Source: Botryllus schlosseri (lineage: Eukaryota). Taken from it: a stretch of DNA of 64,000 nt. Within the stretch, counting starts at the first letter, position 1; each line of letters opens with the position of its first letter. The stretch lies in assembly GCA_051294905.1 (NCBI GenBank), contig CM119372.1:29576001-29640000 (forward strand). The letters run 5' to 3'. The position numbers and the translations under genes are program-made. Shown one piece after another: positions 10,900 to 50,100 of the stretch. Under the pieces are notes generated by a model, which saw only the letters and a list, made by a program, of their open reading frames with translations, ran no database searches and was not told where the DNA came from.

Positions 10900-12489
10900 G
10901 TTGTAGGAGTTCATGAGTTTGCGTGTTTCAAATCACTATGTGAACATTACAATTGAGAAACGTTATTCGCAATAGCGGAAAGCACAGTAGCGTGTTTACA
11001 GACTTTGAATAATATTATCTTGATGTCAAGGTGACGAATTAACGCATTCGACTACAATTCAACTTATGTGGTGTAGTGAGTTTGATTGCGAAAAGGATTA
11101 ACCTCGCAAAGGATTAGGGTTAGAACAGAAAGTGTCAAGTTGTTGGTTTTCGAATCTTGATTTCAAGGTGACAAAATAACACATTCGAGTATGATTCAAA
11201 TTTAGTTACGCTGTGAGTCGTGAAAAGAATTAACATCACAAAGGGATTAGGGTTAGAACAGAAATATGTTACAATTTGTTGGTATTCAGGTCACCGCCGT
11301 GGGCGGTTCTGTTATTCGGTACCTATTATACTTATTATTCTTATTATATCTTACCAGTGGAAGCGGGTTCTGTGACCCACTAATTACCAAAATATTACCT
11401 TCGCGAGCGATCGACATGTCTGTAACACCAAGTCACGAGAGATAGTTATATCTGAGGCGTTATCTTGTCAGCGATCACAGGATTTGCAAGCTATTTCACA
11501 CCTATTTGAATAAGTGTTAGTTCGCGAACGCAACTATTGTTGGTTTTCGAATCACCGTCTACAACGGTTCTTGCGAGTAATTCTAACCTCTGTAACACCA
11601 AACCAAGAGAGATTAAGCAAAATATTTCTCACCTATTTGAATAAGCGTTGGTTCGCGAACGCGCCTATACCTGAACACGGTAGCATGCAACCACGCCAAT
11701 AAGAGTAAGGATATATTGATGTCACTCTCACCGTTAATGTTAGGATTGACTCGAATCGGTCATATATAATAATCTGGGATTTATGCACTAAGTATGTACT
11801 AATCACGTGACTGTTTTCTATACTTGATAAGAGCTTCTTGGAGGTACAGAACTTCAATATACAATTGAATACTATATTCATATTGAAATGAACCCGAATA
11901 TTTTCGGCTGACACTCGTCAGGGGTAATCGTCAGCAACTAGTAGAGAATTGGAAAGAACATTGTATATCAACAATCGTATCACAAAATATGACGTCACCA
12001 GCATGAAAGAGAGAGCGTTCAATATCCTATTTTTAGGTGGTACACGAACTCCTTTTGTTGACAGAGTTTTGGTTGGTGTATTTTGATAAAAGTCGACTCC
12101 AAGGCACACAAATGGAATTGTGAACGGCCCCGCCCAATGATTCGAAATCGGTCGTCTCGATAGTTATTCGCACAAATCGGATTATCCAACAGATGTTTGC
12201 CGATGGCAGAATTAATGGCCTTTGATCGATCAGCATCAATCTTAAGCGGATTAGTTAAGGGTGAGCTTTTCTGGTGCCGCCCCTGGCTCTCGCCTAAAAT
12301 GACGCCCCTGCCTCCCCCCCCCCTAAGTAGATCGCAGCAAATTTCGACATATATTCATGTTCAAGCAACCTTGTCAATAAAAATAATTACAAACAATAGG
12401 CCGCGTCTTCGCCTCACCATCTCAACGTTAATAAGGCCAAAAATTATAAAGACAAGAAATAGCGAACGATTGTATTGTGCAAATAGAAA

Positions 12490-12648
12490 ATCAATAGCTG
12501 CCTCAAAGCAAAATCGGCGATAATATCCTCAAATTCAAGTTTTTGAACGTGGTCTCTTTTTATAGACAGAATGGATAGAGCTGATAACCGATCATCATTC
12601 ATGGTAGAACGTAAATAAGACTTAATCAGTTTGAGCTTTGAGTATCTC
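12490..12648 (-). pseudogene. hAT transposase C-terminal dimerisation-domain fragment (distal half of the host element split by the 17-kb insertion)
   Basis: Translates SKLKLIKSYLRSTMNDDRLSALSILSIKRDHVQKLEFEDIIADFA, the hAT C-terminal motif. Continues from the fragment at 29889. Confidence 0.88.
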
Positions 12649-12720
12649 AGTAGTGAGGATTGAATCGTTTGTTGCCGGCCAATCAGAGAAGGCCACGTCG
12701 CCCTAATTGCCACGCCTACA

Positions 12721-12915
12721 TTGCCACATCATCCGCCCATTGCCGCACCTATAGGACGCCCCTTGCCACATCATCCGACCATTGCCGCACCTATATGACG
12801 TCCATTGCCACATCATCAGCCGCGCTCACTGCCACATCATCTGCCACGTCATCTGTGCCACATCATCAAGCGCCATACCTATAGTGCCACATCATCCATC
12901 CATTGCCACATCATC
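12721..12915 (+). repeat. Subterminal GCCACATCATC array (8 units) of the left arm; mirrored at about 29620-29830
   Basis: Seven exact gccacatcatc units plus one gccacgtcatc. A CCAAT box (ggccaatcag) lies at about 12677. Confidence 0.85.
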
Positions 12916-14792
12916 GAATCATGACTATGCGTACTGAGCTGTGTTTTGAGAATATGAATTCTCGCGTAATACACTAAACGTTGAAGTAGATTTCATAACG
13001 TCATCACAGAGGAATCAATCAACTATCTTGCTCTAGGTTGTAGGTTCAATCCCTGTAGTCACCGCATTTCATACGATTCAGCGCTTTTCATATCTTCTAA
13101 TACTTTACTCAGTCTCGTTGAAATAGCATTGTATAGTGTAAGAGTTCATTTTATTTCGAAAAAAGAGCATATCAATGATATCGTCAGTGGCGGCTCGTGA
13201 CAATATCGGGTGGTGGGGCAAGGGCCGCAAGCGACTTGTTATCAATATGACGTCACAGTAGCGTTTTTCAACGTTCATGATGGCCCCATGAATTTCCCGT
13301 AAACAATGATTTTTAACGTAGGTGCCGCGAGAGGTTTGCCGGTGGCGTGACTTGAAGTGCGGTAACAAATGTTTTATTCATTGTTTTTTATTCAAATGAT
13401 TATTTTACAAAATGTACGCGAACTAAGAATCGTTCCCATGCCACGAATCAATCATCAGGTTATCCTTAGTAGCATGCGTTATGATTTCGTGGTAGAGATT
13501 ACGCAAGCGCCGAGTAAGACTATACCAAAAATACACAGACCAACTACCTACAAAGAGCATTCGCATGACACCTTGTGGTGTTTTAATCGTTCCATGCTCA
13601 GCAATTCTGTAAAGTGCTGCAGCGCCTCCGACCCGATTTGTATATGGATTCTCGTCCCGAAAGCGAGTCAAATCGATTTGCCCTCGTCCGAAAGTGTTTG
13701 GTACACGATCCTGATGCGTTACGACCAGGAGATAGGCAATCAAAGCGGTGGCACCCATAAACGTAAAACATTATAAAAAGCCAGCTGTTATCCATGGAAG
13801 ATTGAGCTGATGCGCGTAGCAATGCAAAAAATGCGCATGCGGGTAAACTTCTTTCATTAAAACTTGTACGCTATGTCGCGATCCGCTCATGACTGCTGCG
13901 CCGTCGTAGGTTTGCGCAATAAGTTTCGACTCAACTGAATAGGGCTGTAATGTTTTTTTTAATACGTAAGAAATTCCGACAGCAGTGCGATCGTCAACAG
14001 CCACAAAGCTGTGGAATCGTTCGACTGGCATACCAAATTTCGTGAACCGAAAAATCACGACTAGTTGTGACAAACACGTAATGTCAGTTGTTTTGTCAGA
14101 CTGAATAGATAGAAATTCAGCGTCAACAATCTCGGTAAACAAATGCTGTAGATAGATGTGATATATCGAATCAAGCACATCATTTTGAATAGTCTTTGAG
14201 GTACCCTTAGCTACTGTCGCGGTGTCGAGATGTTCGCGCAAAATGCTATCAATGGAAGCCGTGTATTTAATTAGATCCAAAAATACCCCCCTATTGAGAG
14301 AGCATTCCTTCTCATCGTGGCCTCGAAGGGGCAATTCATGAACTCCAATAAATTTAATGGCATCAATCACCCGAGAGAGAACATGCCTATTCTTATCTAC
14401 AAGCTCATTGTGCTTGCAGACTGATACGCGATAACTTTCATTGAGCTGCGACATTACATTTACTCTGCCAAACAATTTATATTTAACTGCACTAGCCATG
14501 TGCACTTGGGATTTTTGGTGCGTTTTCAGACGCTCTGACAAATGCTTCAGATCGCGATAACCAATTTTGTTCCAACAAGAGCCACTGCTTCCGGTACCGG
14601 CACTGTCGAATAAAAGACAGTAAAAGCAAAACAAGGCGTTTTTATCCTCGCCATAAGTAAGCCATTCATTTTTATCGAAATGCGCTGAAGAAAAGGCACG
14701 AGTGCGCTTTCCTCCGGCGTACGATTGGATCAATGGGCAATTTCTAGGCTGATACGGACCTAGTCGCTTTACCTCTAATTTTTGCTCTAAAG

Positions 14793-16363
14793 CAGGGGTT
14801 CTCAACCCGCGGCCCGCGGGCCGCATGCGGCCCGCAGACGTATATTTTGTGGCCCGCGACATCTTTCATTATAAACGCAATTACTAATGACACGGTATTG
14901 TTACAAATTAATTTAGATACTTAGCTCTTTTATCGCACCGTCTCTGTTTCGTTTGATTACTCATTCTTGAAGACAGTGGTTCTCAAACTGGGGGCACGCG
15001 CCCTCTTTGGTGCGTGAAGCATCTGAAGGGGGCGCGAAGGTGTGGTCAACTGAAAAGAAATTCGCGCTGCGCGCAATTTATCCCTAATTCACTGTTATTT
15101 CTTTGTGTATAGTCCGAATTTCATATTTGAGAATTCTCTGATCAACGGCTATAACCTTCCATGCCATCAAACTAGCCGTTTGTATTGCTAGCATTCTGGT
15201 TGCATTTTGTTATATGACGATAAGGGGGCACGAAATTTTTCCCTATCAAAAAGGGGGGGGGGGCTTGACTAAAAAATGTTTGAGAACCACTGCTTCAATG
15301 TGCTCTCGTTTCTTGATATATGCTCGACTTCAGATTGTTATTGTTTTGAATCATTATTTGGCTGGACTCTGGTTCAAGAGAATCCCGCTTCTTAGTAGGC
15401 CTGCACTTTTAAAGAGTGTTTGACTCACTGCGAACGGTTGTTGAGATTGCCGACGACGTTACAGACGCATCGTTTAAAATTGCTTCGAATATCGCTAAAC
15501 CCAAGAAATTTGATATAGAAGGTGTGATTTCAATAAAATCGTAACATACTTTGCGAATATTTGCTGTTTTCGGAACTTAGCAGCAAGGACAACATCACCA
15601 GACAAATTTCGAAGATGCAATCGTCTGATTCAATCCTGACCAGACGAGTAACATCAATATCAGTCAATCTTTTATCGCCTGTTCTGAAACACGTTGCCGC
15701 GTAGACTACTTTTACGCAGCCTTGGATGAATCCACCGACATTGTATAACTAATTATCTGGTTGAATTTCATCAGAGTGGACATATATGCAGAGAAATACT
15801 GGCTGGGCAAACGTGGGGAGGGGACCAGCGAAAAATATCAACTTGACAAAGCTGACTTCTGTAACTATTGGTACAGTGCCCTAAGCATGAACGGAAAGGA
15901 GAAATGTTGATTGTTTTGCTCAGAAATGCCCCCAAACACCAGATTTCTTCTCATATCACTCAGAGCTCAATGTGATAATGGTCTCTGTAACGCAAAAGTT
16001 ATAGTAATTTTATACTTGCTCGCCCACGCATTGGAACCAAGAGTTCGGCTCTCTGGTGGAAGGATTTGAAGTTGCATATACCGACTTGACAACGAATGTA
16101 ATGCACGCTCCATGAAGGGATTTACATGCGCCGCTAGAAGATACACATTCTCACAAGCAGCAGCTGCAAACTTACGAACGCTGTTCATTATTACTTTATA
16201 ATGCATAGAAATGTACTAAATGCCGGTATACGACTGGTAAATCGACTACAATAGCCTAAATTTAATAGTAGCCCATGAATGCAAGGTAACATAGTTCTGC
16301 GGCCCGCAGCGTCTTTTGCTGTTAAAATGCGGCCCGTTCTACCAGGAAAGTTGAGAACCCCTG
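14793..16363 (+). mobile_element. Charlie/Buster-type hAT deletion derivative
   Basis: TIR caggggttctcaac/gttgagaacccctg; exact TSD ctctaaag; gcggcccgc repeats; decayed transposase remnants (LTRRVT, ALDESTDI). Confidence 0.92.
14974..15292. mobile_element. Small hAT MITE nested in the Charlie-type element
   Basis: TIR cagtggttctcaaac/gtttgagaaccactg; TSD degenerate (cttgaaga/cttcaatg). Confidence 0.8.
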
Positions 16364-17951
16364 CTCTAAAGGCAGCTGGCTAAACGGCGTACGGAGCAAA
16401 GATTCAACACGATTCATGTTCGCACTTGACCTGACTACTTATCTGCAGAAATGGAAATGACTATAAATCGAGAGATTGCGTATGCCTAACTGGAAAGGTC
16501 AACGAGTTCGGACACATACGCAATTGTTATCTCATAGATTGGACAAGGAAATGTCATATTGAATCCAAAACATCATTCTGAAGAACTACGGATAGCAGCC
16601 TCGGAAATTCGGTCCCGGTACAGCTTGGGAGATTCTGGCCTTGAGGCTGGAGACTGTCACACGACACATACGGCTTACGGTCTATAGTGTCTATATGTCT
16701 GCTGCAAAATCGCCTTCGGAAAATATATTACCGAATAAATACGTGGATGAAAGCCGAAAACTTGGTACACTGTTACATGAAATCATCGAGAAGTATAGCC
16801 TCATGACCGTTTTCGGTATGGTACACTGTCAAAAGTAATACGAACAGATCAACGCCGAATTTTGCGTAATATTTACTGAGGAATCGGCTGATCAAGCGAT
16901 CAGCTGTTAGCCGCCATCGAAAACGAAACAGCTATCGCGCTTGACAGGGGTTGTAATTGTGAGCAAATGGCCCGAAGGCCACCATTCCACGGTGAAATTG
17001 ACATTGGAGAATATAAAATAGAACTAAATATTTGAATGCAAACCGAGGATGTTAGTAAACTGTTTCATGATATCATCATCTCATCACCTATCTCAGTATG
17101 GAACACAGATACACCGGCTTTTGCGTGAAATCCGCAATGCGTTAGGTAGTGTCAGATCAGCGCACATCTCTACCATACTCGAACTTAATAACGAAATTGC
17201 TGCCCTAATCATTGAGTGTCAACCTTGAGACTTGGCACAGCGTTCGATACTAAAATCAAGACATACCATGTAAAAGTTCATGACGGATCTAGCTAAGGAG
17301 CATCGTTAAAATCAATGGAGACCAATACCGGCTTTGCGTGAAATATGTTTGCGATACATGACCGATCAGCACACACTCGACTTTGGAAACGGAATTACTA
17401 CCCTAAACTTTGAGTAGAAACCCTGAAACTTAGGACAGTGTTAAATACCACCATCACGACTTGACATACCAAGTTTCAAGAATTATCATGGTGTGAAACA
17501 CCATCAAAATCGACCTGTACCAGCAACGATCGACTCAACGCATATCACGGTATCCGAGTTCAGATATAGATACGATTGTTACATCACACCTTAGGGGCGA
17601 GCAAGCATATTTGCCCCGGTTGCTCGGCCATTTTACGAATAGGAGAGAGTAAAGCAACGTTTCTTAATTGTGCGCAGCTTTGAGAGAATAGATAGTGAAA
17701 GCTTGTTATGAGCGCTACCGGGGCAAGCCCCGGCTAGGCATTCACAAAGCGAAAACACAGAAGAGAATTCGATTTTCGCGGAGACTTCGCTATGTATGGG
17801 CATTTGCAAGCGAAAGCACAAGAAGAACGCGGGTTTCGCTGTGATCTCGATATATATTGAGCGCTGTGCGTCTATAAATGGTTAAATTGTTATTGAACAG
17901 AATTTTAGGTGGGGCAATGCCCCAGTTGCCCTATAGGACGAGCCGCCACTG

Positions 17952-18429
17952 GATATCGTTGATCGTTACTGCGTCGATTCACTTGCTGAAATCCTCCAGA
18001 TCGGTTGATGTTTCGAGGTACACCGCTTTGCTGCCATCCGACACTGCAATCCGAGTTCTTGCGTTCGATCTGACCGTTTTGTATGATGTAGCGATCACTG
18101 GCTTGTAGTACATACGATACGAGCGGAAGGTCGGGATTAGGAACAACTACGCTGGGCGAATAGATGACGAATTCGTCAGCCGGATTCAGAGGTTGATAAT
18201 GCTCGATCCCGTCGCGAGTATACGTAACGACCAAACCTCCTTCATGCTTCAGATTGGCTCGATATTTCTGAATGATCCCGCTTGTGGTATGTACAAAGAG
18301 TTGAGTTGAGGTCAATTCTGCTCCATTCGAGGCTTCGATACGTAATCTTGTGATGTCATTAAAAAGATACAAGTCTTTTCGACAGGGCCCGTGGGGCAGA
18401 ATAGTATCTCCACGGATTGCTAGACTCAT
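17952..18429 (-). pseudogene. Unknown intronless ORF2, left-arm copy; last codons replaced by the hAT insertion
   Basis: MSLAIRGDTILPHG...GGFQQVNRR is near-identical to 28883-29365. The native stop is separated by the insertion at 17951. Confidence 0.6.
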
Positions 18430-18445
18430 TCTTTGAAAAGAAATA

Positions 18446-19027
18446 TCAAACATAAGTACAACAGTCATCACGCAATTCCACCTCGCCATCAAATTTAGTC
18501 GAGCCTCTTCTTATGTTAGGTGTCGCATAACAGACAATACGAATACATTGCAACCCCTTCCGCTTGATGAGAAAAGGAAACGTAGGATAAAACTTTGCAT
18601 GCTCGAGCCAGGGGTCATCGCACGGCAACCAATTTTGAAACAGCCCTACGCACGAGAAACACTTTAAATGATCCTTATAGCCCAAATAGAACAATCCGCA
18701 GTCTGCGAGCTCGGCTCCGGAGGTATTGATATTATCCGGCCACCGCATGAATGTGCTTAGTCTACGAGCATAGCGTGTCATGTTATAGAAAACGGGATCA
18801 TTCAACGGGGAGACAGTTACATCTCTATGCTCCGCATAGCATTCATAAATCTTTTCCCCTCTGTTCTTTATCATAGCTTGGTACTGTTCAATGGGACCCA
18901 TCCGAGTTTCATCTTCGCTTATTTCTATGCTACTTGTGGCACCGATGCAAGCGCAGTTGGATGTAGCGTAATTTGTAGGGTCCACACTACGCTTAGGTAG
19001 CGAATCGCTTTGATCAATGTTCGAAAT
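18446..19027 (-). CDS. Single-BIR-domain (IAP-like) protein, left-arm copy; ancestral ATG appears mutated to ATT
   Basis: RLSTF..WP....LA..GLFY.G..D..KCFSC...NW...DDPW.EHAK.P is a BIR signature. Frame is open from 19027 to the stop. Fourth zinc ligand is Phe. An internal ATG (MGPIEQ) precedes the BIR. May be a pseudogene. Confidence 0.8.
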   Translation of the reverse strand: MSNIDQSDSLPKRSVDPTNYATSNCACIGATSSIEISEDETRMGPIEQYQAMIKNRGEKIYECYAEHRDVTVSPLNDPVFYNMTRYARRLSTFMRWPDNINTSGAELADCGLFYLGYKDHLKCFSCVGLFQNWLPCDDPWLEHAKFYPTFPFLIKRKGLQCIRIVCYATPNIRRGSTKFDGEVELRDDCCTYV

Positions 19028-20054
19028 TGCTATCCGAATTGATATACTCTCATGATCAGTATGCTTTATACAGATATTGAGCTATTCACCGTTGAAACAT
19101 GTGCTTGGTACCGATCGAATGATAGGCCCCCTAGGTCGTATCACGGAAAATAGAACGTCGACTGCTCACAGAAAAAGGCACGTAGCTCATATCCGTTCCT
19201 GGAACGTGTTATCAATAATTAGAATGTTAGTAAGAATGCCACGAGTACAATCACGCGGTGATGATTAATACCTAAAAAATGATTTACTCAACGACATCTT
19301 GACTCATGCGGATTATTAATTTAAAAAAATTGAACTATAGTGTATCGGAACTTAGTTTTACTTTACTGAGATTAGTTGTACTTTTCAACTAACTTGTTGT
19401 CTGTCGATACATTCATTTAATTACGATTCCGAGAAGTCGGATCGATTCCCATAATATAACGATTGAGTGCCGTCCTTTTTTTCACATCTTATACTTTAGC
19501 TGACACTTACTCAGTGTACGAGTTCATTTATTTCGAAAAAGAGCATAATATATCAATATCATTGTGCGTCATTGCATCGATTCACTTGCTGAAATCCTCC
19601 AGATCGTTTGATGTTTCGATGTCGCTTCACGAGTTCCATTCATTGTATCCATATATATCAACAAGCAGCTATGCAAATCCACACCTTACATAACTAGGAC
19701 TCTTGTATGTCATTAACATTATAGACAGCCATTCGACGATATTCAACTGGCATTGATGCTTTTGATACAGCGCAGTATGTATAACGCCACGCTGATCAAT
19801 TCAATTTCAACAATGGGAACCGCGCACGATTATATGGCCGGATTTTCGTTGAATATTGACAACAAACTTTGCTTGCTTTCAAAGCTAGTAACTAAGCATT
19901 TTTCAATATTGACCCTGTGTTCTCGGTTTCTAACTAAAATAGTTCTAATAGTTACTGGGGAGAATTCGCAACCACTTCCATCTCGCTAAATAATTCTCGC
20001 ACACCCCCTATAGCTCGTAAAGATGTCACCAATCATCTGTTCAGAGCAATAAAC

Positions 20055-20968
20055 TAGGGATGGTGTGAACTTGAGGTTCACGTTCGCGTTCTGTGTGTGA
20101 ACCTCAGAAATTTAGAGGTTCACGTTCACAAACGAACCTTGGTAGGTTCTGCACTGTGAACCTTTTTTATATATTACAATTTTAACTTCATTATAACATT
20201 TTTGGTTGAAATTTATTGCATTTCAACTGCGGGCCACTCTAGGCACGGCGCTTGCAGCATGAAAAAAATCAACACTAAACTAGCATGCACCTTGCCAATC
20301 TCAAAGCTTTGACTTGCTTTGTTACAAAAGTTTGCTCGAAATATCCAGATTTCCGTAGTGAATATTTAGTGACTCTCTACTGTAAGCTTGACCCGCAATC
20401 ACACAATATCAAGAGCGAAATACACTACAAGTAGGTAGTCAGTGAATGATGCTTATTCATTATATTCAACCAATCAATGAAATTGATATCGTTGCTTGAT
20501 GTAAAAAATCTAGCAGGCGTACGGAGTCAATCTTGACTTCATATGTTTAATGTATAATGAAAACGATTGGGGTTGGTGCGTTGGCTACTAATGTACAACT
20601 TGTTAATGGGGTAATATTAGTAGCAAGTATAGAAACCCGTTTTACACTCTGCTCAATATCAACGTAGCAATACTCAGACGCCGAATACATTCGCCCGGTC
20701 TGATCTAGACCGTTAAGTCGTAAGCTTATATTCCCTTGCAAGTCCTCGTCGAAATTGTCGGCAAAGCGACGAAAGATTCTGATTTTATGGGACTATTATA
20801 TCATTTGATGGCGCCAGTTGATACATTTGGCGACGTTTATGAAGGGTTGGAATTAGCAAAATGACGTCACGTGACGTCATGAGGTTCACGTTCATGTTCA
20901 CACAGAACCTTTCTAAAAGGTTCGCGTTCACACGAACCTGAACCTTTCAGAGGTTCACACCATCCCTA
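20055..20968. mobile_element. hAT-type MITE with GTTCAC/GTGAAC subterminal repeats
   Basis: TIR tagggatggtgtgaac/gttcacaccatcccta; exact TSD caataaac; absent from the right arm. Confidence 0.93.
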
Positions 20969-21110
20969 CAATAAACACATTTCCACGATGATTTTATATT
21001 CGTAATATACGATAATGCATCATTAATTATGCGAATCATTACCATTTGCGTAGATTAAACATCAAATTCACATATTTAGCGCAATTTGCATATTACGCTC
21101 AACGCCGAAT

Positions 21111-21718
21111 TCATTCAGTTTCACGTTTAATTTCCGGATAAAGTCTTTCGCAGTCGAGAATAGTATCATTCAGTTTTACGAGAACATTTCGGTTGCTGTT
21201 ATATGCTGAAATTAGGTTGAATTTCACATTACATCCAATAGTCCTACAGTTCCCCCGAACTTGGAAAATTGGTGATCGTCCATCGAAACCATTATAGGCT
21301 ACTCTACTTCCCTGAAGAAAAATGAGCAGCAATTCTTATACATCAGTAGCTTTCTACATAAAAACCCCTCCCATTTCAAACAATTTCCCGAATGAAATGA
21401 GTTCAGCATAACGCTCCACTCTTCTCGGGTGAGCTCAGATCGGTAGTAGACAGAAACAATATTATCTTCATATCCAAGACTTGTTGAAATTCCGTGAATC
21501 CCCGCCATTCTCATGTGAATCTCAGTCTCGTGACGCCAAAGAAATTTCTTAAGAAATTTAATGTCATTTTCCTTGCGTCTCTTCTCAAGCTCATACGGAC
21601 GGTAGTCGGATAATATATTTTTCCAGGTAGCCGGATCATTAAGATTCTCCTCTTCATGTCTTAATAGAAGCTCCACCATATTCGTTACAGTTAATCGTCT
21701 TTTCATCCTGCGAGCCAT
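21111..21718 (-). pseudogene. Unknown intronless gene of about 200 codons with one probable frameshift
   Basis: ATG-initiated 139-aa ORF (21299-21718) overlaps a 73-aa ORF in another frame (21111-21332). Protein-like composition; lies inside the Maverick-like element. No family recognised. Confidence 0.5.
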
Positions 21719-22489
21719 TTCTCTGATAGGATACGATACATAACGAATAACATTCGCTATAATATATATTCTGAATAATTTTTTTCCCTATCCATTCTCC
21801 AGGCAATTCACAAAAAAAACTATTTTCCAGAACCCTAAATAAGTGTATATCTAATTCTTTCCGAGGACTCAGACTTAACCTAAATAGAGATCAATCATTC
21901 TTACGGTACCGAAAAAACTAAACAATTCAAAAAGAAAACACAACTAGGCATAAACAAAAATTCTGCCTACATTAAATCAGCATACTCTTACCATCCTTCA
22001 AGTATAATATAGCTCCGCGAAGACAACTCAACCTTTCGTTTACCTTATGTAGCTAATTACAATCCTTCAATGTATAGACTAGTTGATAATAGCTAATTCG
22101 CGACAACACGTACCATAGCAACGTTTCAAAGCCACATGTTTATATTAGATTGTGGCTAATACTATCCTGACAGCTGACAGAGTTAGATAGAGGTTACTAG
22201 CTCTAGTTTTTTTACCAAAACGAAAACTCATCGATACTCAAGTAGAAGTAGAAGGGGCGCCATAAATTTATACTCATAGTTGTAGGATATTATGAAAATA
22301 CACCATACCGAATTTCGTCGGACATTTCCTGATGTAACACCTTTAAAACCAACGCAGTTCTATACAGACTTTTGGCTAAATCTGTTTTAGACGCAATAAT
22401 GTAAGCTGCGTCGGGTGCTGCTATAATGTTAGGAGCGAATATAGTAGAAAGTCCACGTCTGGACGCCTGTAAGCAGGTGCGCATAGTAA

Positions 22490-23789
22490 CAGGGCCGTAA
22501 CTGCCGCACCCCAAACCCCCCAATTGGGGGGGCCCGAGCTCGAAGGGGGCCCAAAATTATTTCATGAATTAGCATAAATTATAGAGTAATTTTTGAAAAT
22601 TTGTACAACTTTTTCACAATTTTTTCGCGCTGCGCGCGATTTCAAGTTGCCAAATTTCTTTATTATTGGGTACTTTTCCCCCAAGAAAAAATACGCAACA
22701 TTTATAGAAATGGGCATATTAGCGTTGGCCATTACCGCGCCACGACGAACCAAGACGTATAAAGTCTTGGACCATGCAATATGCGATTCCAAGAAGTGTG
22801 CCAGAACGATCGGCAGCGAGAAAACTTCGGCCGAAAGGGACTGCCCTTATACTGACCGAAAACTTCGTTATATATACAAATTACACATAGGTTTTGTCCA
22901 TAGGTGCCTGAATGACTGGCGCCGAATGTCATGGCAACCTGAACCTTAGAAGACAAATACCATCCCGCAGAGAAAAATGATATGGCAATGAAGAAATACC
23001 AATTTGAAATCGTGTGTACTTTTAGTTTAGTACGTTTGGGCGATTCTATTTTTTTTTTGATATAGCAGACAGGAGGTCACAAAATAACATCATTTAACGA
23101 TGTCATACCAACGGGTACGCCCGCCCGAATATGTTTAATTATTATTTACGGGCTCTAAAGTTTCGAAGACACCTCACTAAGCTATACCGGTATGAGTAGA
23201 GAGGACAAGAAATTTATAGCAATATATATGCAATTCCCGACCTTATTGACCGATTTATCATGAATTATCGAAAATTTTCGCGCATGGCGCTGGCTCACGA
23301 AACGGTACCACTATAACTTCGTGGTAAAAGTGAACAACGTGATGGGGGACGGTTTATCACCTATTAGAAGCCCATGACTCAAGTTTTGTGGGGGTGCTGT
23401 TTCGTTCCTGTGAACGGGTATACACCCGGAGATGTTTAACTATTTTCGAGGGTTCCTACCTTTTCAAACACACCTCACTCAGCTCAACCGGTAAATCAGA
23501 TTACGTGAGTAGAGAGAGGGTAAAAATTAATAGCAATATATATGCACTTCCCGATCATATTGACCGATTCATTCATGAACTATAGAAATTTCTTCGCGCT
23601 TCGCGCGGTCAGCCGAGTAAAGCTAACACACCCAACGGACACCCAATGTAGATGACATGTAGCGGTAAACAGTGTACAGCCTGAGGGGGGTCTGAGGGGC
23701 GAAGCCCCCCACAAGTAAGGTTTACCACCATATGGGGGGCCCAAGACCAACGTTTTGGAGGGGGCTGACGAAGTGCTGTTACGGCCCTG
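22490..23789 (+). mobile_element. hAT-type MITE, family C
   Basis: TIR cagggccgtaac/gttacggccctg; exact TSD catagtaa. Confidence 0.93.
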
Positions 23790-26700
23790 CATAGTAACGT
23801 AGTAAAACGCATAACAGAATTCACGCAAAAGTCGATATTGCTTTGTGATGATTTTGATGTTGCTCCATACCGATTGGGAAGATAGCAAACCTAATTTCGT
23901 AACTACATAATCCCTAGTAACGTAGCCAGACGCATAACAGAATTTACGCAAAATCGGTGTTGCTCTGGGATAATTTTGATCACTATGTTTTGATAATGAC
24001 TTGCTTCCGAGAAATAAATAACATTCATTATACGTTAGATGATACTTTTCCTTGATATTCTATTATGTGTATTTAGGGCTAATGCGACATCACTATGTTG
24101 GCGACAGGCCTGATTTGAACACACTAATTTGCGAATTAAACTTATCACCCACCACGGACACTCAATGAAGAGCACCCTGGAGCACTCACATAAATGCTCA
24201 ACAATCCTTGACATATAATATACTGATCATATAATAAGCTTACAAAACTTATACTTGAGTACTCCGAAATGTACAAGTACTTTACCTTTACACGACGTTT
24301 TTGTAAAATGAATACTAATTTTATTGAAAAATAAAAATTATCCCCCAACACGGACACTCAATGAAGAGCACCCTGAAGCATCCACGTAAAATGCTATACA
24401 ATTCTTGACATATAATATACTGGTGATGATATTAATTAACTCGTGTTTTCAACAGTATAGGGCAAGCATCAGGCAAAACTTATACTTGAGAACTCCGAAA
24501 TGTACAAGTACTTTACCTTTACACGACGTTTTTGTAAAATGATACTTTAAAATGAAGATTACACAAGTACTTCTCCACGAAGTACGAAAAATTCGATAAC
24601 ATACAAATACCACAAATTGCGCTAGCCTTCAGAGTTGATAAGTTTAATTCTTGTAACAAAGATATATGTGCACAATTTACGTTTATCGTAAGTCCTGCAC
24701 GTTCATGATTTCGTCCGAGTTTGAGTTTTAGAAAATAATATACCGACATCGCGACATCCTTCAAAAACAAAAACAACGGTCACCGCTTGAGAGACCTATC
24801 AAACGCAGGTGTAGGACATTATGACAATGGAACATATCAAATTTCATCACACATTTCATGATGGAACACCTTTAAAACTAACGCAGCTCTATACCGTCTT
24901 CGCGTGAATCTGTTTTGCGGGAGCGTATAGCACGTTGCTATGCGTACTCAACTTTAATGACGGAATTACAGATGTAATTAAGTTTCAGCACTTTTACAAT
25001 GATTCGTCTTGCTTCCTATAAAATCCCACTCGAAGCCCTCGTTATTAGGCTGTGATCTCAGTCCGAGCTATGTCTTGAAGCCTACGGAACTCTGCAAATT
25101 GTTTCGATTTATTCTGCCCGTTTTAATTTAAGATAAGGAAGTCCATTTTACTCAATTCATCGATGCCTACGGTACTCTACAAAATTTTCTGATTACTTCT
25201 CTCTATGTTAATTTATCATAAGAAAGATGATTCGAATCCTAAAGTACGAAATACTTGTTCGCTTGAGGTAAGCCGCAGCGCTTGGAGGGGAAGTTTACGA
25301 GGTATGTGGACTCATTTCGAAGGGCTCTATGCCATACGTGCATACTTTTACGCTCCAATTCGATTCCCACACATTCCATATAATTACTAACAGAACCATT
25401 GAGTACCAGCCTTGAAATTTCGCATAGTACTAGATGGCAAGTATACAATTTCATGACATCCGACAGTACGAAGGAGACTATCAAAATATCGAAAGAAGTC
25501 CTCTATACTTTTCTGAAATAATCAAGGTTTTATCAGGACTCCCTTCATATAAACTCCAGCAGAATCACCAATAACCTCTCAAGTTTACTCAATTAACTCT
25601 AATTTGATACTCGAGAACTAAATCCCTATTTTCTGCAAGTATGATAGAGGCTATCGCTCAATACTCAACGATTCGTAATTTTGCCGGAATACAAGTGCAA
25701 TTAGGGATTTAAAAGTAACTAATATAGGTGGTTATGTTTGTGGATTATTTACACTCCTACTTATCGGTTTTCAGGAGAAACTACCTACTTTTAGGACTCT
25801 ATATTTTAAAGTAGTTTGAGGTTACGTTTGTATCACCTTGACAAGTGCTATTATCAAAAACAGCTTTTACTAAACTCTTACACTTTCACTAAATGTCTAC
25901 ACTGAATATTGTAAAGTAGATAGTAAAGGAAATGTATTAACATAAGGTAAGCGAGAAGCGTGCAAATTTCGATTGCATACAAATACCACAAACTGTGCTA
26001 ACTTTCAGAGTTGTTAAGTATAGAAGTACTCGTACTTCTTGAGAGTACCCAAGTAGGTTTTTTGCCTACATGTACCAAATACTCTCAAGTCCTTATGATA
26101 TTGGAGTACATCAACTTCATGATAACTACAGTATTAAACATAAATATACCTAGAGTACTAACGTTTTACTTACTCGGAAATGACTACTTCTACCTTATTT
26201 TAAAGGATTCCTCGCTCGAAGCGAAATTTTATGTGGTTTTTGGATAATATCCAAGATGTAGGCTCACTTTGAAGGGTATTTCGTACAACTCAATTATTGC
26301 GCAGTGAGAGTTTGCAAATTCTCGATGTATTTTTGTTATTTTTATTGCTATAAGTCATTCTGCAGCGCGAAAATGCGTCGTAGGATTTATATGAAACTGG
26401 CACCACTCATCAAGACCACCGAAAACAGTACATTTCAACATTTAGTAGCAGTAAATTGCTAGTAAAGTACAAGAAGTGATGATTTCCGAGTGAGTTAAAA
26501 AGTAAGTACTGAAGGTATAGTCTACCAGAAGACCGAAAACTCCGAAATAGAAGTAGATGCAGTGTAAATAGGTAATCACTTGATTAAGTATAGTGCAACC
26601 AGATAAAACCTATACTTGAGTACTACAAAATGCACGAGTACTTTGATGTCGACTCCCTCCGCGTAAAAGTGACTACGGGTTGAGAATACTTTTACCGATA

Positions 26701-27115
26701 CTCGACAGTTTATGTTTTAGGTAAAATTCGCAAACCAAGTAATTTCATAAACAAAAGCTAATTAAATGAATTCACTCGAATGTACTATGCCGCGCTGATA
26801 AGATTAATTATAATATACTTATCATGTTACAGTGTTTTTTCTAGCGGAGAAAATCTTTAAAATGTAGTAAGCAGGCCGATATGAAGTTATTCGTTGAGCT
26901 GAATAAACATGAAAAATACTCCCGCGCCCCGAAATTTATGTATAATCTGAATTATATTTTCTGGGGAAAGTATTATCAAACGTATAATGAATGTTATTTA
27001 TTTTTGGAATATTAGTCCCAAATACACATAATAGAATATCTAAGGAAAGTATCATCTAACGAAGTTTCATAATAAACATGAAAATACCTGGTGTCGTTGA
27101 GTTGAATAAACATAA

Positions 27116-27191
27116 AAAATATTCCCGCGCCCACCTAAACCTAACTCTCTAACTCTTCCTAACCCTACAACCAGGGGCGCGGGAATATTTT
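27116..27191. repeat. 17-bp perfect stem with a C-rich (ctaacc-like) loop at the inner edge of the right arm
   Basis: aaaatattcccgcgccc...gggcgcgggaatatttt. Confidence 0.8.
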
Positions 27192-28282
27192 ACATATATT
27201 ACGAATATAAAGTCATCGTGGAAATGTGTTTATTGCTCTGAACAGATGATTGGTGTTATATTTACGAGCTATAGGGGGTGTTGCGAGAATTATTTAGCGA
27301 GATGGAAGTGGTTGCGAATTCTCCCCAGTAACTATTAGAACTATTTTAGTTAGAAACCGAGAACACAGGGTCAATATTGAAAAATGCTTAGTTACTAACT
27401 CTGAAAGCAAGCAAAGTTTGTTGTCAATATTCAACGAAAATCCGGCCATATAATCGTGCGCGGGTCCCATTGTTGAAATTGAATTGATCAGCGTGACGTT
27501 ATACATACTGCGCTGTATCGAAAGCATCAATGCCAGTTGAATATCGTCGAATGGCTGTCTATAATGTTAATGACATACAAGAGTCCTAGTTATCTAAGCT
27601 GCGGATTTGCATAGTTGCTTGTTGATATATATGGATACAAGAATGGAACTCGTGAAGCGACATCGAAACATCAAGCGATCTGAAGGATTTCAGCAAGTGA
27701 ATCGATGCAATGACGCACAATGATATCATTGATATATAATGCTCTTTTTCGAAATAAATGAACTCGTACACTATACAATGCTATTTCAATTAGACTGAGT
27801 AAGTGTCAGCTAAAGTATAAGACGTGAAAAAAAAGGTCAGCACTGAATCGTTATATTATGGGAATCGATCCGACTTCTCGGAATCGTAAATAAATGAAAG
27901 TATCGACAGACAACAAGTTAATTGAAAAGTACAACTAATCTCAGTAAAGTAAAACTAAGTTCCGATACACTATAGTTCAATTTTTTTTAATTAATAATCC
28001 GCATGAGTCAAGATGTCGTTAAGTAAATCATTTTTTAGGTATTAATCATCACCGCGTGATTGTACTCGTGGCATTCTTACTAACATTCTAATTATTGATA
28101 ACACGTACCAGGAACGGATATGAGCTACGTGCCTTTTTCTGTGAGCAGTCGACGTTCTATTTTCCGTGATACGACCTAGGGGGCCTATCATTCGATCGGT
28201 GCCAAGCACATACTTCAACGGTGCATAGCTCAATATCTGTATAAAGCATACTGATCATGAGAGTATATCAATTCGGATAGCA

Positions 28283-28866
28283 ATGTCGAACATTGATCAA
28301 AGCGATTCGCTACCTAAGCGTATAGTGTGGACCCTACAAATTACGCTACATTCAACTGCGCTTGCATCGGTACCACAAGTAGCATAGAAATAAGCGGAGA
28401 TGAAACTCGGATGGGTCCCATTGAACAGTACCAAGCTATGATAAAGAACAGAGGGGAAAAGATTTAGGAATGCTATGCGGAGCATAGAGATGTAACTGTC
28501 TCCCAGTTGAATGATCCCGTTTTCTATAACATGACACGCTATGCTCGTAGACTAAGCACATTCATGCGGTGGCCGGATAACATCAATACCTCCGGAGCCG
28601 AGCTCGCAGACTACGGATTGTTCTATTTGGGCTATAAGGGTCATTTAAAGTGTTTCTCGTGCGGAGGGCTGTTTCAAAATTGGTTGCCGTGCGATGACCC
28701 CTGGCTCGAGCATGCAAAGTTTTATCCTACGTTTCCTTTTCTCATCAAGCGGAAGGGGTTGCAATATATTCGTAATGTCTGTTATGCGACACCTAACATA
28801 AGAAGAGGCTCGACTAAATTTGATGGCGAGGTGGAATTGCGTGATGACTGTTGTACTTATGTTTGA
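28283..28866 (+). pseudogene. BIR-domain (IAP-like) gene, right-arm copy, disabled upstream of the BIR
   Basis: Keeps ATG at 28283 but has 2 extra nt near 28321 and TAG at 28465 (TAT in the left copy). The BIR-coding part stays open. Confidence 0.85.
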
Positions 28867-28882
28867 TATTTCTTTTCAAAGA

Positions 28883-29365
28883 ATGAGTCTAGCAATCCGA
28901 AGAGATACTATTCTGCCCCACGGGCTCTATCGAAAAGACTTGTATCATTTTAATGACATCACAAAATTACGTATCGAAGCCTCGAATGGAGCAGAAGTGA
29001 CCTCGGATCAACTCTTTGTACATTCCACAAGCGGGATCATTCAGAAATATCGAGCCACTCTGAAGCATGAAGGAGGTTTGGTCGTTACGTATACTCGCGA
29101 CGGGATCGAGCATTATCAACCTCTGAATCCGGCTGACGAATTCGTCATCTATTCGCCCAGCGTAGTTGTTCCTAATCCCGACCTTCCGCTCGTATCGTAT
29201 GTACTACAAGCCAGTGATCGCTACATCAAACAAAACGGTCAGATCGAACGCAAGAACTCGGATCGCAGTGTCGGATGGCAGCAAAGCGGTGTACCTCGAA
29301 ACATCAACCGATCTGGAGGATTTCAGCAAGTGAATCGACGCAATAACGATAAACGATATCATTGA
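28883..29365 (+). CDS. Unknown 160-aa intronless ORF2, right-arm copy
   Basis: ATG 16 nt after the BIR stop; open in both arms; AATAAA at about 29382. No family recognised. Confidence 0.6.
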   Translation: MSLAIRRDTILPHGLYRKDLYHFNDITKLRIEASNGAEVTSDQLFVHSTSGIIQKYRATLKHEGGLVVTYTRDGIEHYQPLNPADEFVIYSPSVVVPNPDLPLVSYVLQASDRYIKQNGQIERKNSDRSVGWQQSGVPRNINRSGGFQQVNRRNNDKRYH

Positions 29366-29888
29366 TATGCTCTTTTTTCGAAATAAAATGAACTCTTACA
29401 CTATGCAATGCTATTTCAATGAGACTGAGTAAAGTGTTAGAAGATATGAAAAGCGCTGAATCGTATGAAATGCGGTGACTACAGGGATCGAACCTACAAC
29501 CTAGAGCAAGATAGTTGATTGATTCCTCTGTGATGACGTTATGAAATCTACTTCAACGTTTAGTGTATTACGCGAGAATTCATATTCTCAAAAAACAGCT
29601 CAGTACGCATAGTCATGATTCGATGATGTGGCAATGGATGGATGATGTGGCACTATAGGTGTGGCGCTTGATGATGTGGCACAGATGACGTGACAGATGA
29701 TGTGGCAGTGAGCGCGGCTGATGATGTGGCAATGCACGTCATGTAGGTGCGGCAATGGGCGGATGATGTGGCAAGGGGCGTCCTATAGGTGCGGCAATGG
29801 GTGGATGATGTGGCAATGTAGGCGTGGCAATTAGGGCGGCGTGGCCTTCTCTGATTGGCCGGCAACAAATGATTCAATCCTCACTACT

Positions 29889-30500
29889 AAGATCGCCTCA
29901 CAGAGCTCGCAATTGAAACACCAATGGTCAGATAAAGTTTTAGACACGAGCATAAATATGGTGTCGAATCAAGTAGCATTGCATTAACTAAACACTGTAA
30001 AACATCAAACGCTTTTGCACTACGATCAAACTTGGCTTCACTGCTCCGCACCAGCCTCTTACCCTTTCAAAATCTCAAGTTGAACAACTTCATATGATCA
30101 TATTTTAATTTGTGTCCGTTCTAGAGGCCTCATATTGATTTGTACGAAAAGCCAGCAATATTCTGATTCATACGATTCGAAGGTATAAGGCATGACAATT
30201 TTCGCAGCTAACTCCAAAAAGTCCACCTCGTTGTCATAAGTGCTTCTAAAAGCGCTGGTGAATAAATTGTGACTTTCGCTTTGCCGCAGTGCGTGGGAAT
30301 TCAAAAATCCAAACATATCATTCAAGTGGTGTATGCCGGTAAACCTAGTTTCAGCTTCAAGTTTAAATCTGTCCAAAGCTTGAAACATGCATCGTCTAAC
30401 TTCTTCAACAACACTGAGGCCAGTATCTTCTGATTGTTCGCCAGCATTCTCCTTTTTCTGCGAACTCTCCGAACAATCAGCACTGGCGGCTATTTCGGAG
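29889..30500 (-). pseudogene. hAT transposase fragment (proximal half of the host element)
   Basis: KKENAGEQSEDTGLS..EEVRRCMFQALDRF..RF..LNDMFGFL, and PYLCSCLKLYLTIGVSIAS..RS directly abutting the insertion. Confidence 0.85.
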
Positions 30501-47127: not shown

Positions 47128-50100
47128 GCGCAGTGCCCATGCAAGCGTATGCAGAAGCTGTTTTGTCTGTAATGGCGCTGCGGATGGAACTATCCCATAT
47201 CGAAAACGTAAACGGAAATGCAATCCAATCCAGTTAATTCAGGACTAATTGGTTTTGCGAAACCGGAACATTCATTGACTTGAAAATTGGATCGAAAATT
47301 CGTCTCTTAATTACGATTCATTTGATATCTTCAAGTCCGAGTCCACTCAAGACATTTTAGGGTAGTGACTGGAGTCAAATCCTGACTCGAGTGATCAAAC
47401 ACGAATCCCACCAAATGTAGGCCTATGGTATAATTGTGATATAATTGTTAATGTTGGGTTTAATATATATGTGTTAGGGGGCTTACAAAGTGCTGTCTTG
47501 AATCTGGAAAAATACTCCGCGTCAAACATATTCTACTTCTTGCATTTGCAGAAATCGAGTTTTTGTATTCTTGACACTTTGACATCAAAATGAAGGTCAT
47601 TTTGCTTGCAGCATGCGTGCTATGGATATGCGTGGGGTCGGGTGAGTTTGTTAACGCTGCTTCACAGGTGGCTTAAGAATAAGTCCCTGCTTTCGCAGTA
47701 CTTGTAACTTGCAGTATTTAGAGAGCATGTAATGTTAGTGGTCTTTATCGTATAAATCGGCTGTTTGGGATTCAATACAGAATTCTGAATCGGTTCAAAC
47801 AGCATATAGTTGAGAGCTACCGTCACCGACTGGAATATTACGAATGTGCTGCCTCACTCACACAGGTCGGAAGATATGCTTGGAAATTTGACTGTTTCAG
47901 ATTATGGTTATGAAATTGACGCTGTTTGATAAAATAGAGGTATATACTTGCATTCATCAAACTGAGGTCCACGGTCCTTTAGGGGTACGCAACACAATTT
48001 TCTAGGACCGCGAAGCACGTTCCAAAAATTCAAACGATCCAAAAAAATGAACAAATTTTAGAAAAAAAAAATTCACGCAACTTAATTTTAAACCAAAATC
48101 GATGATGGCCCAAAATTATATCGGTAATCAACATAAAATAGTGTATTTCGGTGCAGAAATATTTAATTTCATCATCGGCATCTAGGAGTTGACCATTTCC
48201 CTGCCAGGACACACCTAGATATATGAAGGTATTGCCAAGATGCGACATCACGTGAAGCTCGCTGCCAAAAAGATCACTAAATGCCATGGCCCAGAATTAT
48301 CACCGTATGTTGTACACAACCATACGCAGCCGAGCTGGTCAGTCGGTCGGCTACGGCTACACCTGTCCCATTGACACTATAAAATCAAACGTGTTGTTCT
48401 GTGGTGATTTTGTAAGGGACCGTGAGTCACTTACAATATTGCCTAGGGATCGATTTGTGATTTTTTTTTGAAGTTTGAGAACCACTGCTGTAGACAGATT
48501 ATAAATCTAATTCTCATTCACATCACCACTAATTAAGAATGTAAAGGCTTATTCTCTATTGATAGTCAGGGCTAATACATTTCGTCATTTAATTAGTTAC
48601 CGTTTTATCTTATTCGATCATATATTTCTATACCGTTGTGGAGAATACCCACTTGGCATTGCGTGTTAACTACTATTTGTCAATCTATATGTTTGGCACT
48701 TTCGACTCATGAATCATTATACTTACAGCGTTTGGAATCAAATGTTACGTTGGAGGGTCGTCAAACTACCAGTTAACAGACTGTTCAAGTTCTGTAACCC
48801 AATGTGCCAAGATAACAACGAGCGGTAAGAAGTCGATACTGCTAATGAAGTCACTGTTTTACATTTTTTTGCATCCAAAGTGTTTATAGCTAGATCGGGT
48901 GAAAGCATAGAATTCAAGTGTTATGTTAATGAAAATCCTTAACTTTCAGACGTCGCCGTAAGGTCGTGCTACGTGCCTATGGTCACAGGAGCTGCCGCTA
49001 CTAGCAACGCGTGTACGGAAGTGAATTTGGGACTTAAGATCGAAACGTGCCTCTGCTCTACAGGTATTAGATAATTCACCACCGATTTTATTTTAGTTGA
49101 AATCATAGTGTCAGTGACGCAACGAGGCGACATTATGCATGTAGTGTATACTTCGTTATTTTACAATATGCAATACGAATTCCTGTAGAAGTGCCGTGTC
49201 GAGTGCGCACATTAGTAGCTGCGTGACGGTATAAAATTAACGGACGTCATTTTATTAGTGACGGTTGCGGTAAAAGGCGTAGACCAAAAGTGACGAAGTT
49301 TGTTTACCTCTGAACCACCGCTATGGAGATGCCAAGTAACTTTAAGGTTATCGAGTAAACGCAACCATTTCAAAGTCCATGCACTCCTGAGCTGCCGATA
49401 ACTCAGCGGGGAAGTCGTGGATACCAGTTTGATAAACATATTTTTGGTCCTACCAAACGTATTTGGAGCCGGTGCAGATCGACACGCCAGACGCTCTACC
49501 AATGCGTTATCTCTTCGGTTAGACGCGAATGCCTCTGCAGGAGTTCTACTTGGACATTCTGACTCCATTCGATTTCACTACGTCACAACGGACATACGTA
49601 CTCAGTTATTTAAAACAATTGCTCCAGCCACAATTTACATCCTGGCTACGCTCATCGTTGTGATATAATAAATAGAAACTTTCTTCTCCTGTAGCAATGC
49701 GGCTACTGGTTGGAATTGAATCAAAGTTGGTTTGTAGGCTTAAATTAGGTATCCTAACAATTTTATCAAGTAGCCAGTACGATTTGAGAAAAAAAGTCAT
49801 ATTTAAAGAGCCCTAGTACTCAGTCATTTGAAACAATTGCCCATGCGCAGTGCCCATGCAAGCGTATGCAGAAGCTGTTTTGTCTGTAATGGCGCTGCGG
49901 ATGGAACTATCCCATATCGAAAACGTAAACGGAAATGCAATCCAATCCAGTTAATTCAGGACTAATTGGTTTTGCGAAACCGGAACATTCATTGACTTGA
50001 AAATTGGATCGAAAATTCGTCTCTTAATTACGATTCATTTGATATCTTCAAGTCCGAGTCCACTCAAGACATTTTAGGGTAGTGACTGGAGTCAAATCCT

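Follow-up and report, generated by a model that had tools for sequence, protein, structure and literature searches.

The window, as we call the analysed stretch of 64,000 nucleotides from Botryllus schlosseri, carries two inverted copies of a single-BIR IAP gene (Table 1). The left copy contains no stop codons and has no start codon at 19025-19027; its frame extends over 211 codons from stop to stop (18446-19081, minus strand), and the first methionine, at 18901, leaves 151 codons. In the right copy the start codon at 28283 is present, a 2-nt insertion brings the frame to an end at 28385, and further downstream lies a TAG in frame. Both copies match the BIR profile PF00653 in a Pfam search, with 57.0 bits for the left and 55.6 bits for the right copy at a cut-off of 22.9 bits. 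Their zinc ligands read Cys, Cys, His and Phe (first bases at 18661, 18652, 18601 and 18580 on the left; 28651, 28660, 28711 and 28732 on the right), so that the motif CX2CX16HX6C is incomplete in both through a phenylalanine at ligand 4. No Pfam profile match to a RING domain was obtained in either gene, and just 43 residues lie beyond ligand 4. An earlier reading made from the letters alone, here called the sequence-only reading, had described the start codon turned into ATT on the left, the 2-nt insertion and TAG on the right, the shared phenylalanine and the missing RING; each of these statements holds, and the Pfam search it had proposed places both arms in the BIR family.

Table 1. Features of the insertion and its flanks (positions in the window)
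Feature	Position	Strand	Description
Left flank	12272..12648	-	3' part of host hAT-type transposase remnant; last 6 bp = left target-site copy
Whole insertion	12649..29888		Two right ends in inverted orientation, AGTAGT...ACTACT; 17,240 bp, about 11.5 kb minus two nested insertions
Left arm, terminal block	12649..13184		97.6% identical to 29353-29888
Nested hAT-type insertion in left arm	13185..17951	-	8-bp target duplication GATATCGT; DUF4371 ORF 13771-14865; overwrites the end of the partner ORF
Left partner ORF	17905..18429	-	Directly 3' of the BIR gene; 174 aa, against 160 aa elsewhere in the family
Left arm, main block	17952..20054		95.8% identical to 27228-29360, gaps counted
Left single-BIR IAP gene	18446..19027	-	Open, without start codon; Phe at ligand 4 (18578-18580); without RING; C-terminus CCTYV
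Nested MITE in left arm	20055..20968		8-bp target duplication CAATAAAC; arm homology picks up again to 21009
Middle region	21010..27194		Without Polinton core genes
Right arm	27195..29888		Unbroken, 2694 bp
Right single-BIR IAP gene	28283..28866	+	Reading frame shifted near 28321-28324, stopped by TAG at 28465; ligand 4 is Phe (28732-28734)
Right partner ORF	28883..29365	+	Open, 160 aa
Right flank	29889..30241	-	Same host element continues; first 6 bp = right target-site copy

Structure of the insertion

Both genes belong to one insertion, a non-autonomous palindromic derivative of a Polinton/Maverick. Its end motifs, (AGT)2//(ACT)2, occupy 12649-12654 and 29883-29888, and both arms are Polinton right ends. 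Over 2679 aligned positions the arms show 71 mismatches (2.65% substitutions), a homology far above chance. Each arm measures 2.7 kb and contains genes, compared with an inverted repeat of 237 bp in a core-gene-bearing relative. The middle region shares 2942 of its 6185 bp with two other palindromic elements and 49 bp with core-gene-bearing relatives. Searches by tblastn with the core proteins of three relatives (L031, L037 and L038: integrase, ATPase and capsid) gave no match in the window, and those with the L037 proteins revealed no type-B polymerase in the element. As the polymerase is absent, the locus represents a non-autonomous derivative rather than a complete Polinton/Maverick.

That the element entered as one insertion follows from an empty-site copy of the host repeat (L036), which covers both flanks with a 6-bp overlap. 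The remnant in the left flank, which we take from a motif to be a hAT-type transposase, had no Pfam match. Compared with the empty site, two of six bases differ in the left target-site copy (12643-12648) and one of six in the right; these three differences in 12 bp exceed what the arm divergence predicts, and the putative target duplication has probably decayed. Four of the six bases in the left target-site copy also agree with the right flank when the latter is read as its reverse complement.

An imperfect target duplication, arms of such limited length and an asymmetric middle would suit a locus that never transposed as a palindrome, formed either by two opposite insertions with a deletion between them or by local inverted duplication of a truncated copy. 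Such an origin is very unlikely. It is largely refuted by the contiguity of the flanks in the empty-site copy, with an overlap of exactly 6 bp; moreover, the arms are sister sequences, the middle is partly common to other palindromic elements, and the 6-bp duplications around two other elements with two arms are perfect.

Within the middle region, an open frame of 162 codons (21299-21787; 140 codons from a methionine) adjoins a segment common with a Bcl-2 palindrome and had no Pfam match. Outside the element, the segments 47128-49844 and 49845-52562 of the window form a 2.7-kb tandem duplication with 99.96% identity, which is either very recent or an assembly artefact.

The parent Polinton family

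The BIR gene is an accessory gene (cargo) of a young Polinton/Maverick family of the adintovirus type. A search of the 495-Mb genome, to which all genome-wide scans refer, gave 212 matches to the BIR gene with the best 150 of 617 candidates scored; 47 among the matches listed are 88-100% identical. A same-family integrase lies at most 10 kb upstream of 37 of these 47, and the remaining ten include the four arms of the window palindrome and of a second palindrome on C1 described below. When 29 copies were read, 27 had an ACTACT end 0.9-1.5 kb downstream of the gene, 27 an open frame of 193 codons (of the other two, one has a later start and the other a nonsense codon), and 26 an open frame together with all four zinc ligands. 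The length of 193 residues that the sequence-only reading had reconstructed from the two damaged arms is therefore that of natural copies. In a word-based protein search only P0001 matched, with 93% identity and cysteine at ligand 4.

One relative read to both ends (L004) is 16.8 kb long, with 237-bp inverted repeats and a perfect 6-bp target duplication. It encodes an rve+chromo integrase, an A32 ATPase and a Bcl-2 protein (75 bits) and has ORFs resembling capsid and protease genes; no polymerase ORF was seen in it. In another relative (L037) the place of this Bcl-2 gene is taken by a type-B polymerase of 1291 aa. This ORF was assigned by Atlas to DNA_pol_B_2 clusters (0.96), and many of its homologues carry PF03175; the ORF itself matched neither PF03175 nor any entry in a PDB sequence search. 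A genome scan with PF03175 returned 0 of 9 candidates with an equally silent control and is hence uninformative, the polymerase having been found directly instead. Within the parent family the integrase is recognised by profile (rve 54 bits, plus chromo) and the packaging ATPase exceeds its threshold (Pox_A32, 35.8 bits). The DJR-like capsid match is weak (15-18 bits, below the cut-off of 27), the protease candidate resembles a viral cysteine protease at E 0.53 with no Pfam match, and the minor capsids are labelled by position only. Target duplications of 6 bp are perfect in all three relatives with both ends read. These features match the Maverick definition as given in the available text of two published accounts (PMC8097293, PMC10748475). 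A search of viral contigs for the family returned no locus.

Could the BIR gene instead have come from a host IAP, as a retrocopy or an exon, and lie in repeats by chance? Its BIR does group with host IAP domains of ascidians, and intronless IAPs scattered through a genome are as a rule taken for retrocopies; the available text of a 2026 survey ascribes them to retrotransposition (PMC13159474). In 37 of the 47 copies listed, however, the gene has a constant position, with the Polinton core genes on one side and the right end on the other, and BIR gene and partner ORF recur as a cassette in all four more divergent Polinton families read, with four ligands each and an integrase 8-10 kb away. The fixed position and the recurrence of the cassette refute a host retrocopy, to which we assign a negligible probability. 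The closest homologues are intronless and lie beside AGTAGT-type ends; intron-containing host exons unconnected with the termini, the opposite outcome considered in the sequence-only reading, were not what we found. Its proposal that mobile elements provide a route for IAP copy expansion is borne out on a far larger scale than the window could show.

Two further features of the family were observed. In L009 (8-1249) and other copies of the polymerase-bearing subfamily, an ORF of 411-423 aa stands head to head with the BIR gene and gave no notable Pfam or PHROG match. In core-gene-bearing elements the left accessory region is filled by a tandem array of units of about 515 bp (L032:5354-10000).

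Origin and expression of the BIR domain

The best single-domain structure matches of the BIR are BIR3 of cIAP1/2 and ML-IAP, and the residues DDPWxEHAK, presumably the type II groove for IAP-binding motifs, are retained. The closest named homologues are ascidian IAPs. A tree was calculated from 172 domains (ten element proteins, eight labelled hits and every third of P0002-P0150), leaving out domains with other ligand spacing and labelled viral IAPs. It places the window BIR in a clade of 18 domains with a support of 0.996, whose five named members are each the last BIR of an IAP from Ciona, Styela or Phallusia. The phylogeny that had been suggested as a check thus puts the gene with host IAPs of ascidians, in a comparison that did not include labelled viral IAPs. 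The BIRs of L043 and L044, which represent two cassette-bearing families at a greater distance, are placed elsewhere in the tree, and the domain on which it is built is short. From its relationships, the single BIR was likely captured from an ascidian host gene, as the last (BIR3-type) domain of a cIAP-like gene.

Expression is barely shown. In three RNA runs, of each of which 3-6% was read and two of which are single-cell libraries with a probable 3' bias, the mean depth over the BIR frame was 0-2.2; little points to expression of the family in these samples and nothing to that of the window locus. The codon of ligand 4 was covered by one read and two contigs, all of which have the family state, and no transcript of the phenylalanine form was present among them. 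A pile of minus-strand reads at 17960-18180, with a depth of up to about 70, was considered as expression of the window locus and rejected: the reads depart from the window at 18180 into common other sequence, and in run X24 86% of them continue into unlike sequence. The pile stems from a related element or a spliced form expressing the 3' part of the partner ORF.

Loss of the fourth zinc ligand in a constrained family

Scanning the whole genome for the pattern gave 46 copies of the ligand-4 site, of which 43 have cysteine, one glycine and two phenylalanine; both instances of phenylalanine are those in the window arms. Sporadic ligand loss occurs in other copies, as arginine at ligand 2 in L005 and as the glycine at ligand 4 on C6. 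The copy count and dN/dS comparison that the sequence-only reading had suggested thus separate the window from its relatives. Over the last 540 coding nucleotides of the 29 other family copies, pN/pS is 0.18; variants common to at least two copies comprise 19 nonsynonymous and 32 synonymous changes, singletons 36 and 29. The changes private to the window number 13 nonsynonymous and 2 synonymous, with 79% nonsynonymous expected under neutrality, and this ratio differs from that of the shared variants (Fisher p = 0.001). Those common to both arms (3 nonsynonymous, 1 synonymous) are too few alone to show neutrality. Between BIR families, dN/dS is 0.10-0.14 in all four estimable pairs. Judged by these substitution patterns, the BIR gene family is under purifying selection and the window-private changes look neutral.

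Regarding the phenylalanine, either early decay or a non-canonical decoy BIR had been envisaged; decay stands and the decoy does not. A selected, zinc-free decoy made as a shortened product of the left arm could draw on the open left frame across the BIR with its internal methionine, and on the presence of the change in both arms. Loss of a zinc ligand, however, usually destabilises the BIR fold, the phenylalanine is confined to this one locus, both copies have further lesions besides neutral-looking private changes, and the transcripts covering the codon show the family state. We reject this reading as extremely improbable.

History of the two arms

The two window arms group as sisters in a tree of the family (UFBoot 99). 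Among 1877 sites compared, both arms have 12 changes that no other copy read shows, spread evenly along the alignment; a further 24 changes belong to the left arm alone and 22 to the right. The replacement of cysteine by phenylalanine predates the duplication or homogenisation of the arms, as had been supposed. The lesions that had been called complementary are real; they arose as independent damage to each arm after insertion.

Other palindromes in the genome give a measure of this history. The second element with two right ends, on C1, is 14.7 kb long, with arms 99.7% identical, a perfect 6-bp duplication and cysteine in both BIR genes. Its arms have 12 shared private changes in 1178 sites and two arm-specific ones, and it is younger than the window element, an older insertion that was made once and has since decayed in both arms. 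A related gene with three BIR domains has at least 105 matches, and 80 of those listed fall in 40 inverted pairs. Seven of these pairs have a stop in both arms, five in one arm and 28 in none, and the stop is at the same codon in both of the two both-arm pairs checked. As seven of 40 pairs have a stop in both arms, shared lesions are normal in palindromes here; a lesion in both arms is no sign of selection in them, which is a caution for other loci of this genome. One 3-BIR palindrome (L039/L034/L040; C4:18241053-18255845) was read to both ends. It spans 14.8 kb from AGTAGT to ACTACT, has a perfect 6-bp duplication and arms 99.6-99.97% identical, and its sole recognisable genes are two 404-aa 3-BIR IAPs without RING. 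At L062 (C2:35122700-35126400) the arms are 100% identical over 1614 bp, and relative to L034 both carry 14 changes in 404 residues, one of them a stop; this reflects either transposition of a satellite with dead cargo, ongoing conversion or assembly smoothing. At C4:11848235-11864438, two inverted BIR copies lie 15.6 kb apart with one integrase in between, which may make the locus an intermediate that combines core genes with two right ends.

The window locus is very probably a dead copy, in which decay has overtaken a coreless palindromic Polinton derivative carrying an accessory anti-apoptotic gene. With a BIR taken from the host domain described above, working copies may bind IAP-binding-motif proteins or caspases and thereby delay cell death during element replication, as domain type and selection suggest. 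A template switch in protein-primed strand-displacement copying, a mechanism known from linear DNA viruses, could have swapped the left part of an element for a copy of its right end. The product would have had two right ends, arms identical at birth and no core genes, and would have been copied and integrated by the enzymes of complete (helper) elements. The phenylalanine and the 11 other shared changes would have arisen before the arms were last made identical, on a copy free of selection; start loss, frameshift and nonsense codon would have followed, arm by arm.

For the shared changes, the main alternative retains the same element and the same decay but lets them arise after insertion, copied from arm to arm by gene conversion as in long chromosomal palindromes. 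The identical yet damaged arms of L062, the excess of pairs with a stop in both arms over those with a stop in one (seven and five of 40), and the partial match of the left target-site copy to the right flank are in its favour. The 12 shared changes, however, are interleaved with the 46 arm-specific ones and form no tract, both nested transposons are confined to the left arm, and conversion would need to have come to an early and complete halt. We consider it unlikely, though far less so than the other alternatives, and prefer an origin of the shared changes before the arms were last made identical.

Anti-apoptotic cargo across the genome

At least 47 single-BIR, at least 105 three-BIR and at least 150 Bcl-2 matches in this genome are cargo of Polintons or of palindromes derived from them. 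The Bcl-2 search gave 150 matches from the best 150 of 417 candidates scored, and 108 of the 150 listed form at least 54 convergent inverted pairs. In one such pair the arms are 99.8-100% identical and the 13.8 kb read, which stop short of both ends, contained no other ORF of at least 100 aa. A Bcl-2 gene (L031:7341-7859) replaces the polymerase region in one subfamily, and all 14 copies read have the NWGR motif intact. When 13 paired Bcl-2 copies are pooled, of which the interior was read for one, dN/dS is 0.28; between two paired 3-BIR families it is 0.15. The cargo of Polintons and palindromic derivatives appears from these ratios to be kept under selection. The closest Bcl-2 pairs look neutral (one silent and three changing substitutions; none and two), and the signal in paired copies may date from complete ancestors.

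Intronless genes of 564-583 aa with three BIRs and a RING were also found (L047:743-2434, L048:630-2378), with many similar matches among those listed. AGTAGT lies 0.5-0.6 kb upstream of the gene at both loci, which probably represent another Polinton family carrying a full-length cIAP.

The phenylalanine codon itself is minor, the window holding a pseudogene pair, and interest lies in the family-level picture. The family is a concrete route for the expansion of IAP and Bcl-2 genes, and counts of apoptosis-regulator genes in such genomes may largely reflect viral cargo. Tentatively, we put forward that coreless, helper-dependent palindromic satellites keep IAP and Bcl-2 cargo in both arms under purifying selection; Polintons and satellites would then be the chief contributors to the number of IAP and Bcl-2 copies, among them hundreds of intronless genes scattered through the genome. 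This is possible rather than probable. If true, hundreds of Polinton-borne intronless genes would otherwise be counted as host retrocopies, and satellites may add cell survival for the replicating element population or for the host. Were the cargo of coreless satellites under selection, this would inform the question of what role Mavericks have in their host.

Comparison with known systems

A single BIR without RING is also found in African swine fever virus A224L and in host survivin; the window BIR instead is nearest to cIAP BIR3 in structure and to ascidian last BIRs in the tree, which was built without labelled viral IAPs. The palindromes recall copy-back or snap-back defective genomes of linear DNA and RNA viruses, which consist of inverted copies of one end, have lost core genes and depend on a helper. 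Here the product is integrated with a target duplication, and helper replication is a conjecture.

Homologues of Bcl2 and IAP have been observed in adintoviruses (Starrett et al. 2021, PMC8502044), at least two IAP and at least three Bcl2 hits being labelled in the supplement, and an IAP is listed in a figure legend on a leafhopper adintovirus (10.64898/2026.07.28.741253). As far as the available text of PMC8502044 goes, adintoviruses have the type-B polymerase, retroviral-type integrase and ATPase genes seen in this family, capsid genes for which the family has candidates, and accessory IAP and Bcl-2. The IAP described here is a single BIR without RING, with a conserved CTYV end and paired with a partner ORF, and three cargo architectures coexist in one genome at high copy number, many of them in coreless palindromes. 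Known already are thus IAP and Bcl-2 genes in adintoviruses; added here is the scale on which Polintons and palindromic derivatives carry them, as cargo that appears to be under selection. Vertebrate and nematode Mavericks/Polintons, in the published parts available, share the (AGT)2//(ACT)2 ends, 6-bp target duplications (as in the relatives read to both ends), a size of about 17 kb, accessory ORFs in the flanks and a mostly decayed state (PMC8097293, PMC10748475). Their inverted repeats are given there as 46-1447 bp (vertebrates) or 100-1500 bp, shorter than the gene-containing window arms; the arms of other palindromes in this genome measure 3 to 7 kb. Planarian Burro LTR retrotransposons likewise combine a mobile element with BIR and BCL2-like domains, which according to the available text lie inside a retrotransposon polyprotein (PMC6431247), whereas here they are separate genes of a DNA virus-like element. 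That intronless IAPs ride on such an element contrasts with the retrotransposition invoked in PMC13159474. A search of titles and abstract openings, with most subscription journals and Repbase outside its scope, brought up none that deals with anti-apoptotic genes in palindromic satellites of Polintons.

Partner ORF and C-terminus of the BIR protein

The ORF following the BIR gene is present in all five Polinton families examined, with 160-190 aa and 43-76% identity; in the left window arm it is longer because of the nested insertion. It had no match in Pfam, PHROG or Atlas, and an AlphaFold model from five sequences (mean pLDDT 45.7) predicts a mostly beta structure at low confidence.

The BIR protein itself ends in CTYV in both window copies (18449-18463 and 28849-28863). 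The same end was found in 29 of 29 family copies (L002-L030) and in three relatives down to 44% identity (L045, L046 and P0014), and is absent from L043 and L044. It resembles what we take to be a CaaX or class I PDZ-binding motif, and through this invariant C-terminus the single-BIR protein may be anchored to a membrane or scaffold.
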